Origin: Aplysia californica
Taxonomy: Eukaryota
Length of the DNA stretch: 64,000 nucleotides
Direction of reading: 5' to 3'
NCBI RefSeq assembly: GCF_000002075.1
Contig: NW_004797350.1
Span: 1,032,505 to 1,096,504, forward strand
The number at the start of each line of letters is the position of its first letter. Position 1 is the first letter of the stretch. Shown in pieces: positions 28,992 to 43,430 of the stretch. The position numbers and the translations under genes were made by a program. Under the pieces are notes generated by a model that saw only the letters and a program-made list of their open reading frames with translations, searched no databases and was not told where the DNA came from.

Positions 28992-30553
28992 TAAATCAAA
29001 AGTAGAATGTTTTATGCATTTCAGTCCCCCCTTCGCCACTCACCCACCTGTGCTGGTAAAAACCTACTAATTATACACAAAAATAACAATGCTAAGTGAC
29101 CGTTGCCATCTAAATCTATGTCAAAGATGGATCCACAGTAAAATGACTATTTCCAAGACAACAAGAACAAATAGAGACACAGAAATTCAGCAGTGTGAAT
29201 ACTGAACACACAGTTGCTACAAAATGATGAGTGTGAGAGAGAGAGAAAGAGAGATGGAATTATTACCAATGGCGGTAGTCTTGGCAGCAAAGATGAGAAT
29301 TGTAAGCTATCCATGAAGAAATGTATGTTTTTCCAGATCATGACCAAAAAAATTGGAACTCTAGAAGCAGTAAAATGCTTTAAAAAATGAGTTGCTAATA
29401 AAACTTGAGAATGAACTCACATAGTATTGAACAACATTGTTGGCAGTTTTTCTGGCTACTTTTCTACACTTTGGTGGCTGTTTTCTCCTCATCTTAGCCG
29501 TTTTAACAATGGCATCATCAAGTCCAGGTACCAAATCTTCTTCGATGTGAGATTTCTTGCATGAATCCAATGGTTCATATTCTGAAACTGAAAAGTAAAC
29601 ATTTAATTTTAAAAAGGTTTAAATCCAAAAGCCCACAATCAGCACAATGCGCATTCCTCTCTTTCTCAGGGACTGTTTCACCATCTTGAATTGAAGCACA
29701 ACATTGGCTTGATGATTTGCAATACTTGATGGTTGTTAGTCAAGATTTGATCAAGATAGTGTCATGTATTCATAACCCTCAAAATTCTTTTCAGTTGGGG
29801 TTGAGAAATGGGAAGCATTTCAGCTGCCTAATTGGCAGTATTATTACAAAGACAAAGTAGGTGGGGGGGGGGGGGGGGGGGGGGGGGTATTATTAAACTT
29901 TCTCCTATTCATTTACTGAATGCTGTTTTCGAACAACAACTGCTCGGTTTGAATTCAAACCACTGTAGGGTATCATGTGTACTGTCTAGACATCACAATC
30001 ATAACATCAAGATCCAGACAGACATTGAAAGCAGCAGGAGAGACACGACTGTACCGGTGGACGTATGCTTTATTACTGAAAATTCTCTTCTCTCTGAATT
30101 CTATGATGATTGTATCTAAGACAACAATTAGGTAACCACTTACGCGGCTTGGTTACGAGTTGCAAGTGGTTACCAGTTGCCAGGTTTCCTAATTACTAAG
30201 GCAATAGAGATGGTTTGCCTGATGGTTTTGGACATTACATCATGTACACTTAGATCTACTACTACTACTACTACTAGATCAAGATCTCTAGTCTAGTACT
30301 AAGTGTACTCTAGATCGAGTTTTACTATGAGGTTCGCCTAACTAACTACTATTCTATTACTAGCTATTGTGATGATAGTGGTAGTGGTGGTCTGAACAGT
30401 AGGCCTATAGTCAAGTCTAGAGGTAGCAGTAGTAGCACAAACTTGAAACTGAGGTTCTATATATCTCTAAATCTAGACTACTATCAAGATCTAGATAGAC
30501 TAACTAGAATATGGATCTTGATTTCTAGATATCTAGATCAGAGTTAGGGTCAA

Positions 30554-30736
30554 TAGACGGCGATTGTTAAGATTCACGCGTTTAATTCCGATTTGCGTTA
30601 GGGTCATGGTTAGGGTTACTAGGGTCAGGATTAGGGTTAGGGTTAGGCCGAGGGACAATAAAAGCGAAACATGTCTGAGGCTATCTATGAAAAACGCAAA
30701 TTGGAATTAAACGCGGGAATCTTAACAATCGTCCTA
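30554..30736. mobile_element. Inverted-repeat element enclosing TTAGGG-like repeats
   Basis: cgattgttaagattcacgcgtttaattccgatttgcg ... cgcaaattggaattaaacgcgggaatcttaacaatcg flanking ttagggttagggttagg. Confidence 0.7.
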
Positions 30737-39776: not shown

Positions 39777-41460
39777 ATCTGGAATGCTATGTCACTTAAA
39801 CCGAGCACGCAAAACAAAAGGCAGACAGCTTCTACAGTCTTCGGTCACATCTATGGGTGTCGTCTATGCTCTCAAACGTCAGGACGACTCGTGGGGATGG
39901 AGCAACCCCCGAACTCAACTGGACCTATTAAGGGCCACCATCCATGAGGGCCACTAAGCCAAATCCCGATGGCACTGTCAAAACACTTCATGTGGAGAGA
40001 GTTTCTCCCAATAATAAGCTTTCGATCGTCCAGTCTCTCACTAATTAAACCAGATTTAGCCGCTTTGAAATGTATGTTATTGTTGNNNNNNNNNNNNNNN
40101 NNNNNNNNNNNNNNNNNNNNNNNNNNNNNNNNNNNNNNNNNNNNNNNNNNNNNNNNNNNNNNNNNNNNNNNNNNNNNNNNNNNNNNNNNNNNNNNNNNNN
40201 NNNNNNNNNNNNNNNNNNNNNNNNNNNNNNNNNNNNNNNNNNNNNNNNNTATTAAATTTTCTTTAGTTAGCTTATATAAAAGGCCTTGTACTTTGAGCTA
40301 TAATAGATCTTGTGAGGGTTCGAAGCGCAATTTGAATAGTGGGCCCTACGGTAATTATTAATTTTTGTTTTACAACCAGGCCTTTTCCGAGCGAAAAGAA
40401 TACAGACTAAAACTGTACCCATTCAACAGGATTCGTCCGAAACGAAGTCTTGCACAAAATCTGGGGACTAAATGGAAGCAAAACAAAGATCGAAAATGTG
40501 AGTTTTTCATGTTTTCCCACAGGTCAATATCTCGTGCACCGAATATTAGGGTTGAATTATGTATGTTCTAATATGAATATTATTGTATTGTTCTCCTGAA
40601 TATTTATTTTTCCTGTTTAGATACCGGAGTGCTGAATTTGGGTTTGGGGAGTATAGCCTATAGAGATCTTGACCGCGGTATCCATCACCACAGAACTCCG
40701 TTATCATGAACATGTCCGTTCATGATAACTTACTTTCACTTCAATTACGAGATCTCTTGATCCACCTCAAGCGACAGGGATTAATAATCTTGAGGCAGAG
40801 CTGGAAGTGTTAATATGGGTAGGCACAAACAATGACTCTGTACTGCAGTGATCGCAGGGGTTTAGATTCTAGAGCTAATATCTAATCTAAACATTTCCAC
40901 TGAACTCTGAACTGTGTAAACAAGCCAAACTGGTTGGGAAGTCTGAAATTCCTAAATTCAGTTTCAGGTGCTATAATGTTACTTTCACTCCCATCTTGCC
41001 CAGATATTCTAATCTATAGATATCTAGATCTAGACTTCTAGTTCTATTCTAGATATATTAGATCTAGATCTAGATGTAGATCTAGCTGTTTGTTGTGTTC
41101 ACTATTTTCCACTTCATATGAAATGAATTTCGACTTTGTATATTTGTATCCCTCACAAAATATCAGTTTTTGAAATGATAGTTGAAACTGTTCAAGAAGG
41201 CCACTCATTGTTGAGGACCAGAGAAATGGCCGTATTAGACAGGTGGCAGTCTCACAATACAAAGAGAGGCATAGACTCTAGGCTCTAGGGCAAATTTTAA
41301 CTTTCACTCCCGCACACAGATGCACTGCTTCAGGGGTCAATCTGCAGTACTGTTTGCTGCAGATCACACATAAATCCTCTAAAACTGTCACAAATCAATT
41401 ATTTTCAAGAAAATTCCAAATCTAACTGTAAAATATTAGATTAGCCTATGGTTTAAAACA

Positions 41461-43430
41461 ACATGCGATTAAACGTAGAAAGACGCAAACTATTTTTAGG
41501 TACGGCGCCCATCTTGTTTGACGTCAGACCAGGATTTCCCTCCGATCACGTGACTACATCTAAGTATAGCCAACCGCATGGCACCAAAGATGGAAGTGTA
41601 CAAAAATTGCCGTAAAGACGCTGGAGGATTAGATCTAGATCTACCCCCCCCCCCCCCCCCCCCAATCTCCTGCATTCTTCATTCTTCATCACTAATATCA
41701 CTAATATACATGAAAAAAACAAACAAACTTCAAAGCAGCTCTACAAATTATAACTTATATGGGACTGTCGGTCAGTCGGGAGGAGGAAAAGAAAAAAATC
41801 ACACCCTTTCCCGCATATTTCAGATAATAAAAATAAAATATAGATCTATAATTATATTATAGGCCTACCAAAGATTGTTCGTATACAATATGGTTCAATC
41901 GGTCCAAAAAATGTCCGTATTTATATAAAGAAATGCTACAGTTCCAAACAGTTTTTCGCTACAGATATGACGTGTGGCCTATGAAGGGTGCTGCTCTTAA
42001 ACTTAATGTGTTGCGTTCACTCGTGAGCTGTCTAGATCTAGATCTATGGAGGGTTATTGATAACGACACATAGAGCTAGCATCTGCGTTTGTCGAGGCCG
42101 CGACCAATCAATCGTGGCTCGATTTTTTGGTCCCCGAAAAAGTCAAAAAAAAAAAAAGAAAATGAACCTCTTTACTTTTGAAAGAAAGTTCACTTAGCTT
42201 CACTTCGTCTCTTTCTCACTTGTTGTCACCACGTTGATTTGTTGAATACGTTACAGTTACATACGATTTGTATTGCTGTTCCTCTATTATTTTTCGTTTA
42301 TTTTTCCCTCTTTGTGGTGTTATATTTTGTTGGTGTGTATTTTTTTTTTCTTGATGTGTTGTTTTTCTATTAATTTTTTTTGTTGGGGAAAATGGGGGGG
42401 GGGGGGGTTGTATAGTGTAACGTCATTTAATTTGATGTTTCTACAAAAGGTATTGTGTAACGTCATTTAATTTGATGTTCCTACCTTCATTAGATTCTAA
42501 ATATATATACCTGTATAGATTTAAATGTGCTATGTTAGAGCGTTCCACCAAAACCAATTACATGTACTGACACTGGCAGATCCCCTGTGTGTGATTCCAT
42601 AATTTCCATGCAATATCCTGTACTTTTTTTTACAAATTACGCACATTTAGGGTTAAAACGGTCATTCTTCTTCGGACAGGTGGACACACGCCCTTATTTG
42701 TTAATTGTTGTGGTTGTTTCTGGGCTGTTCTAGTTTTGATTTCATTCTGTTGTGAAACCTTTCTTTTTCACGTTTTTACACTCATCTAAAAATCTCTAGA
42801 CTAGATCTAGCTCTTGAAAATTGAAATAGATCTAAACCCAAAAATTTGCTCTGGTTTTTTTTTTTAATGGACGATAACCGTCCACTCAATAGAAAAGAGG
42901 GTCAGATTTCTCCGTCTCTCGGGTGCCTCAGGCAGTACCCGCCTCGCTAAACCAGTGGGCACACGGCCGGAGGAGAAGCTGAGAACAGATACCACCATTG
43001 ATTTGCTCCTTCCCAGACCTCGCAGAATGACGGAATGAAAGTTGGCGCCGAACTCTCGCAAATAGGCAAACAATCACGACCAGAGCGGAAGCCGGAAACC
43101 GTTCGGAGAAATAAAGATCGGCACTATTTCTCCGAACGTTCGGAGAAATAGTCACTTCGAAAAAAATAGTCTGGGACCAGAATCAAACCGCTCCTAAAAT
43201 CACTGCATGATGACTTCAAACGCAACGCGCTGTCTATTCGGCCATCAGAACTTCCGAAAGCTTAGTGTAGATTAAGCGTTATATACATAGACACTTCCAT
43301 CTTTGGTGCCATGCGGTTGGCTATACTTAGATGTAGTCACGTGATTGGAGGGGTATCCTGGTCTGACGTCAAACAAGATGGGCGCGGTACCTAAAAATAG
43401 GTTGCGTCTTTCTACGTTTAATCGCATGTG
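41461..43430. mobile_element. Putative ~2-kb non-autonomous element bounded by ~140-bp inverted repeats (MULE-like)
   Basis: 41461-41600 and 43290-43430 are inverted copies. Possible degenerate 9-bp TSD gtttaaaac / tgttaaaac. Confidence 0.55.
43090..43160 (+). repeat. Hairpin-ended repeat, also at 30780-30845 and 31277-31332; Helitron/Helentron-like end
   Basis: Perfect palindrome ctatttctccgaacgttcggagaaatag followed by tcacttcg. Confidence 0.55.

Follow-up and report, generated by a model that had tools for sequence, protein, structure and literature searches.

Transposons of the IS630-Tc1-mariner (ITm) group leave small scars when they excise: a staggered cut followed by nonhomologous end joining (NHEJ) leaves terminal bases of the element between the two copies of its duplicated TA (PMC2874221, PMC3520976, PMC9976928). 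The parts of the relevant reports available to us also describe the pogo element Passer as leaving footprints of 0 to 4 bp and favoring transcription start sites (TSSs) (PMC9976928), Fot-like pogo elements as having terminal inverted repeats (TIRs) flanked by a TA (or TAA/TAAA) duplication (PMC7386202), and a Fot1-like subgroup in oyster (PMC7325037). Here we examined a 64,000-nucleotide stretch of the Aplysia californica genome (contig NW_004797350.1, positions 1,032,505 to 1,096,504; hereafter the window) in which the word TAGATCTA and its relatives form arrays of TAGATC units. Judged from sequence, these arrays are probably stacked excision scars of Fot-like pogo elements that have GAGT...ACTC ends and duplicate TA. 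Loci elsewhere in the genome are cited by our own handles (L or C followed by a number).

The window contains 40 copies of TAGATCTA, with 34 at 30 to 45 kb and 33 at 30250-42835, where first-order Markov simulations (200 runs) gave a mean of 0.19 and a maximum of 2. In the same interval and under the same model, TAGAATCTA/TAGATTCTA occurred 7 times (0.15 expected) and TAGGCCTA four times, at 30400, 34451, 35615, and 41860 (0.11 expected). The original prediction, which was made from the letters of the window, had reported all of these, and its main word enrichment at 30 to 44 kb, its TAGAATCTA/TAGATTCTA variant, and its four TAGGCCTA positions (all exact) held, while its weaker variants did not, nor did the intergenic confinement and the comparison of two repeat copies discussed below. 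TAGACTA/TAGTCTA, claimed to be dense there, numbered 5 in 30250-42835 against 1.6 expected, with simulations going up to 7, and 9 of the 14 window copies lay outside 30 to 45 kb; likewise, 7 of the 9 window copies of TACATGTA fell outside the domain to which it was supposed to be confined. TAGATTA (7 versus 2.4 expected in 30250-42835) was also inside the simulated spread. Genome-wide, exact TAGATCTA occurred 177,062 times in 927 Mb, and five perfect TAGATC units gave 711 matches. A tally over 430 kb around arrays yielded GATC 628, GAATC/GATTC 128, GAGTC/GACTC 20, and six-base forms 14 to 18 each; among GG-type units, GGCC numbered 108, and the longer variants carried the third base of their family (GGGCC/GGCCC 14 versus GGACC 1). 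Variation from unit to unit was located at the unit center, which is the pattern one would expect of an end-joining junction.

We aligned all against all 1.87 Mb of genome DNA, a sample enriched for arrays and transposon loci rather than random, and polarized 1,059 insertions by the minority state among homologues. Among the 159 distinct, nonduplicating insertions that could be written as TA-X-TA, GATC was the commonest unit (63); by class, 44 were GA-type, 13 GG-type, 3 mixed, 6 CA-type, 13 partly other, and 80 wholly other. A strict set away from arrays comprised 24 rows and 22 distinct insertions (L112 and L136 are one event, at the same position of a miniature inverted-repeat transposable element [MITE]). 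Neither TAGA nor TCTA was present at the site in 12 of these 22; for 8 of the 12, inspection by eye also found nothing of TAGA, TCTA, or GATC within 10 nt. These 12 insertions are beyond the reach of slippage and of local template switching, and on these alignments slippage alone is excluded as the origin of TAGATCTA units. The inserted GATC matches a TA duplication with terminal bases of an element that resides in the genome. The base 5' of TA was C at 22 of 48 half-sites of de novo scars (background, about 0.2; P value = 4 × 10−5) and at 11 of 28 half-sites of the no-template rows (P value = 0.013).

Such gains are present in the window itself. At 42802-42809 (within 42797-42834), a TA became TAGATCTA; three paralogues are clearly empty, one is ambiguous, and one close paralogue (97%) is filled. 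Two further gains lie outside 30250-42835: one at 22462-22469, where a single unit of a tandem repeat (261 bp) is affected and homologues are 17 empty and 0 filled, and one at 28760-28767, in a Tigger-type MITE, where the precursor was TAGATA and a template switch is also possible. The 22462 unit is one of three internal units of 261 to 267 bp in two element copies at 21846-22648 and 24974-25765. The +6 gains of GATCTA at single TA sites without a prior repeat that had been predicted were thus found, between paralogous copies rather than between haplotypes; when contigs from three DNA runs, and one RNA run, were compared with 31032-40085, repeat copies swamped the matches. We also saw de novo TA-CATG-TA and TA-CCG-TA insertions (L111:361, L114:4713, and L152:9412; L102), which suggest that other TA-targeting families leave scars too.

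A DDE_1 search of the genome gave 123 matches, and the 52 examined included five families with TA-GAGT...ACTC-TA ends (L292/L291, L301-305, L289, L295, and L286), which have few copies, some of them young. Family B (L292/L291) is 4.3 kb long with a 938-amino-acid frame, copies 96 to 99% alike, and 1.5-kb derivatives; family A (L301-305) is 3.9 kb long with an 893-amino-acid frame, protein identities of 92 to 99%, and short, imperfect TIRs. Pfam identified DDE_1 plus HTH_psq and/or HTH_Tnp_Tc5 in L292, L302, L304, L309, and L283, and no HTH domain in the single open reading frames of L289, L295, and L286, which may miss an upstream exon. Catalytic spacing was DD35D in L286, L289, L292, L295, and L283 and DD36D in L301-305. 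In a midpoint-rooted tree built without outside references, with a long-branch warning and with 21 of 44 rows left out, the GAG-ended elements and a GGG-ended sister family (TA-GGGT...ACCC-TA; L256-259 and L283) formed one clade (100/100), apart from DD30D Tigger-type proteins. A relative, 59% identical, is labeled as coming from another sea slug. By their predicted domains, DD35/36D spacing, and TA duplication, the donors are Fot-like pogo elements and not Tc1/mariner proper, and the GGG-ended sisters would fit TAGGCCTA.

The donors mostly sit at TAGATC units. Among the flanks of 29 GA-family ends (30 were listed; one without terminal bases was dropped), TA was present at 29, CTA at 27, TCTA at 25, and a TAGATC unit within 14 nt at 20, compared with 6.7% TCTA and 1.2% TAGATC units among TA half-sites in 514 kb of unselected DNA. 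Furthermore, exact family-A left ends, which were found genome-wide without TA in the pattern, followed TCTA in six of six cases, arrays lie on either side of the donor at L289, L292, L302, L317, and L318, and the TA duplication is supported by one empty paralogue (L314 versus L014). A TA-GA...TC-TA transposon, as originally predicted, therefore exists, but it is rare (6 exact family-A left ends and 14 of another end) rather than abundant; the Tc1/mariner excision idea stood as regards a TA-framed scar of terminal bases and failed as regards the donor, which is Fot-like pogo. At two loci, donors lie in unusual arrangements. At L304:1400-6150, a family-A donor lies between long inverted copies of one host repeat, suggestive of a transposase-made rearrangement, and at L291:200-240 and 9070-9110, a single TAGATCTA lies at the head-to-head junction of tandem family-B copies, with one end lacking exactly its last two bases.

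Three of the families (L292, L313, L295, L301, L302, L304, and L309) encode a C-terminal PHD finger; L289, L286, and the GG family showed no such finger. Its best PDB matches were the fingers of KDM7, KDM5A/B PHD3, TAF3, Spp1, and Alfin. The Cys4-His-Cys3 zinc ligands are kept, and both tryptophans of the cage for trimethylated lysine 4 of histone H3 (H3K4me3) align with those of KDM5A PHD3, in which, according to the part of the source available to us, two tryptophans form the H3K4me3 groove (PMC9172573). The donor PHD finger is thus a predicted H3K4me3 reader.

We propose that a 2-nt staggered cut would leave GA and TC at the donor site and that end joining would fill both, with joining errors at the center giving GAATC, GAC/GTC, and GA units. 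Because donor ends favor TCTA and TAGATC units and the scar recreates TC-TA and TA-GA, each scar would be a better target than its precursor, and the arrays are likely self-feeding, growing by retargeting. MITE copying would then spread arrays, with slippage and microhomology deletion altering their length later, and TAGGCCTA/TAGGCTA would arise likewise from the GGG-ended sister family. Least certain is the step in which the C-terminal PHD finger might steer integration to H3K4me3 chromatin; such steering would put scars around promoters active in the germ line. The excision-footprint interpretation made originally is supported by the template-free +6 units and by the donors, and it needs amending in that the arrays are promoter-proximal rather than CpG-intergenic, about half of the TAGATCTA copies of 30250-42835 were brought by a MITE, and slippage or microhomology deletion also reshapes existing arrays.

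The promoter-proximal assignment draws on RNA reads and CpG content. A splice junction from 40497 to 48037 (GT..AG; 26, 21, and 33 reads in three of three runs of one study) places 12 of the 34 TAGATCTA copies of 30 to 45 kb in the intron that directly follows the first detected exon of a plus-strand gene. The 3' part of that exon occupies 40400-40497 (plus strand), with read depth starting in the 40024-40687 bin, and a mixed array at 41022-41085 lies about 0.5 kb inside the intron. This gene is the putative ZNF106 of the original label. Over 464 kb of the contig, TAGATCTA correlated weakly with plain CpG observed/expected (o/e) ratio (rho = 0.22), and the 35.2- to 40.5-kb segment, rich in CpG, holds zero copies. 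Density was 1.14 per kb in CpG-rich 2-kb bins at most 10 kb from a CpG-poor block, 0.13 in CpG-rich bins farther away, and 0.04 in CpG-poor bins, so near bins were about 8-fold denser than far ones; at least two TAGATCTA were found in 13 of 35 near and 3 of 67 far bins (P value = 4 × 10−5; without the window, P value = 8 × 10−4). In line with mollusc biology, we presume the CpG-poor blocks to be methylated gene bodies. The distribution is consistent with proximity to promoters and not with CpG-rich intergenic DNA in itself, and the earlier claims that arrays are confined to intergenic DNA and belong to the CpG-rich domain as such are contradicted by the intronic copies and by the empty segment. 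The CpG proxy, the one splice junction, and the PHD finger would tie the arrays to germ-line open chromatin only indirectly.

A reading that we rank as a serious contender, a little short of an even chance, accepts pogo-donor scars and attributes their clustering to open-chromatin access or to selective retention (as factor sites or linker signals) instead of PHD reading. Several MITEs of unrelated kinds, together with a copy of ISL2EU, are packed into the same regions, Passer has its preference for TSSs with no PHD finger mentioned in the available part of its report (PMC9976928), and GG-type scars cluster together with TAGATCTA (rho = 0.35), no PHD finger having been found in the GG family. 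Against it, PHD-negative groups with resolved sites outside arrays (L286 and the GG family) have 0 to 1 TAGATCTA per 250-nt flank, and TACATGTA and TACAGTA do not co-cluster with TAGATCTA (rho = 0.04 and 0.01).

We consider it very unlikely that the arrays are a palindromic microsatellite, begun from chance seeds, extended by replication slippage, and varied by point mutation. What speaks for such a history is seen in part in MITEs. A 766-bp MITE with ACATGC...GCATGT ends occupies 34128-34893 (9-bp target duplication, 34119-34127 and 34894-34902) and contains 14 TAGATCTA and the TAGGCCTA at 34451; its family houses 16 of the 33 TAGATCTA of 30250-42835. Its arrays and the 34451 TAGGCCTA were already present in 24 young sister copies, so they were, as far as these copies indicate, largely inherited from a subfamily master. 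The 34544-34603 array is common to the sisters except for one private +6 unit near 34590, while the longest array, at 34664-34772 (17.7 units, 83% matches), differs among the 24 in length and unit order. Among copies about 95% identical in their flanks, array length varies widely as a result of duplications and of deletions from one array to another, and many array gains are exact tandem duplications. Against slippage stand the 12 distinct insertions where no unit existed, new in-array units that are often off at the center (GAAATC and GAATC) with TA intact, and the strong enrichment of donors with matching ends at arrays. Slippage is probably a real secondary process and not the origin; the earlier assertion that the arrays are not slippage microsatellites is borne out for origin without a template and not for the many in-array changes that copy neighboring units. 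The comparison of 34540-34605 with 41628-41645, offered originally as a sign of origin after insertion, fails to show this, since the two tracts belong to different subfamilies and the sisters share nearly the whole 34540-34605 tract. The second copy, of a shorter subfamily, has its left part at 41451-41800, with a 41630-41643 tract, and its other arm at 43291-43439.

Slightly less likely still is short-range template switching or hairpin repair, in which TAGA or TCTA would be turned into an inverted copy, giving TAGATCTA with no transposon. At L029, an inserted GAGC repeats its flank perfectly in inverted orientation, and those strict events that do fall at TAGA/TCTA suit this mechanism. It cannot yield GATC or GGCC at L130, L219, L276, L295, L007, L080, L228, and L291, and it leaves the dominance of a few specific 4-mers unexplained.

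We give almost no credence to a young ISL2EU element with TAGA...TCTA junctions as the donor: its 4.6-kb copies are 98 to 99% identical and end in AGA...TCT, but it duplicates AT in an AATT-like target (12 of 12 listed left ends follow AAT, and an empty site lies in a known repeat) and would give +8 at AT, where the scars are +6 at a C/G-flanked TA (see also the available part of PMC4482050). We accordingly rejected a TA/GA parse of its junctions, as flanks and empty site show AT/AGA. The autonomous family (L152:1560-6180 on C309 and L171-L192) encodes a THAP-HTH-DDE_Tnp_4 transposase and a YqaJ protein, the second protein also ending in a PHD-like pattern, and its empty target repeat is also present in the window near 35010-35030. 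Other candidates were discarded as well. Resolved ends of Tc1 (DD34E) elements were of AAC, CAG, and CTG/CAC type, none GA or GG, among 50 of 150 listed DDE_3 matches with many loci unresolved; an L31-like element has other ends; and the GGCGC...GCGCC MITE at 31586-31825, considered as a TA-GG element, shows an 8-bp target duplication in other copies, and we take it to be Merlin- or hAT-like. Scans for TA-flanked inverted repeats and nested insertions over 0.56 to 1.26 Mb found no GA-ended element, because the donors are too rare for local scans.

Several observations weigh against excision scars of pogo donors as the source of the arrays, or against their PHD-guided placement. Template switching at TAGA/TCTA could also account for the other 10 of the 22 distinct strict insertions, and within arrays a perfect +6 gain is indistinguishable from slippage. 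TA was built into the search pattern for most family-B ends. No donor remnant was found inside the 64-kb window, and donors are few beside the 177,062 words, which would need long persistence together with MITE copying and slippage. Among +1 variants, GAATC/GATTC far outnumber GAGTC/GACTC, though the donors' third base is G; this excess may come from a repeated junction base (compare GGGCC) or from families with GAA ends such as L285, a GAA end being shown by one degraded copy only. That copy (L285:700-5590) is a degraded relative of the GGG family with one GAG and one GAA end, and GAATC units could stem from it. The CpG test works by proxy and used thresholds picked after a coarser CpG o/e table, and L289 is array-embedded, yet without a detected PHD finger.

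Elsewhere in the window, a cluster of TA-framed units at 30251-30770 (TAGATCTA at 30251 and 30749, TAGTCTA/TAGACTA, and TAGGCCTA at 30400) lies immediately upstream of the final exon detected in a minus-strand gene; RNA reads gave neither a splice junction nor a start for this gene. Mixed short arrays of GATC and GATTC/GAATC units follow within 31554-32050 (31554-31590, 31875, and 32016-32043). The POLE2 exons named originally were confirmed by a Pfam DNA_pol_E_B match. A second, minor 5' splice site at 40560 again uses the 48037 acceptor (1, 3, and 1 reads). Tiny palindromes, each about 45 bp long and bounded by CACAGAAT...ATTCTGTG ends, recur at 34925-34970, 35670-35690, 37394-37440, and 37668-37780, and a degenerate, telomere-like GTTAGG run at 30597-30647 lies within a 170-bp inverted-repeat element. 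Remnants of non-long-terminal-repeat retrotransposons are present at 58126-59487 (RNase H plus zf-RVT frame) and 36150-36563 (a short 3' fragment without a Pfam match). Outside the window, L232 (C314:352700-362699) has a 5-kb unit in tandem at 98% identity; the unit includes clusters of TAGATC and what is left of a Tc1 element.

Taken together, these results name a likely source for a word that, hitherto unexplained, is among the commonest in an animal model of neurobiology. The arrays would represent a nonslippage route to microsatellite-like DNA, with transposon scars as a major class of small insertion near promoters, and a promoter motif search that turns up such words has not necessarily hit factor sites. 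Intact-looking donors are at hand in L302 and L292. Tentatively, with confidence somewhat below the halfway mark, we suggest that a pogo transposase equipped with a PHD finger recognizes H3K4me3, lands at CTAG near promoters active in the germ line, and leaves a scar that is its own best target, so that some 10^5 palindromic marks laid down over millions of generations would map germ-line promoters from sequence alone; other end bases might likewise explain the TA-NNNN-TA words of many animal genomes. If the PHD finger guides integration, scar density would record germ-line chromatin in sequence alone, and the element would be a natural promoter-targeting vector.

In the mainly open-access literature, we found no description of arrays like these, of donors with GAG ends, or of pogo elements targeted through a PHD tail; the word PHD is absent from the main texts of PMC7386202 and PMC7325037, whose supplements may list such elements, and PMC9179366 contributed no information about target sites. 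As far as the available parts of the published accounts allow comparison, the scars resemble ITm NHEJ footprints (such as TACATGTA of Tc1; PMC3520976, PMC2874221, and PMC9976928) in that TA frames two terminal bases per end and variation is central. They differ in being natural, genome-scale, stacked, and apparently self-targeting, whereas known footprints are single, rare, or experimental. The donors share with Fot and Fot-like pogo elements (PMC7386202 and PMC7325037) the DD35D/DD36D triad, HTH_psq plus HTH_Tnp_Tc5, the TA duplication, a length of 3.9 to 5.4 kb, and a protein of at most about 940 amino acids; they stand apart in their animal host, GAGT...ACTC ends, short TIRs, C-terminal PHD finger, and (T)CTAG(A) target preference. 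That finger is like the H3K4me3-reading fingers of KDM5A PHD3, TAF3, and Spp1 (PMC9172573) in its Cys4-His-Cys3 ligands and two-tryptophan cage and unlike them in being fused to a transposase and in being a predicted reader. Finally, the linker 6-mers of teleost hypomethylated domains (PMC5607494) are also short self-complementary words at accessible promoter DNA, with their origin left open. GCTAGC and TAGCTA rank high in the weight table of that paper, the words being different from ours, and there sequence is proposed to set chromatin, whereas in our proposal chromatin would guide where sequence is written.

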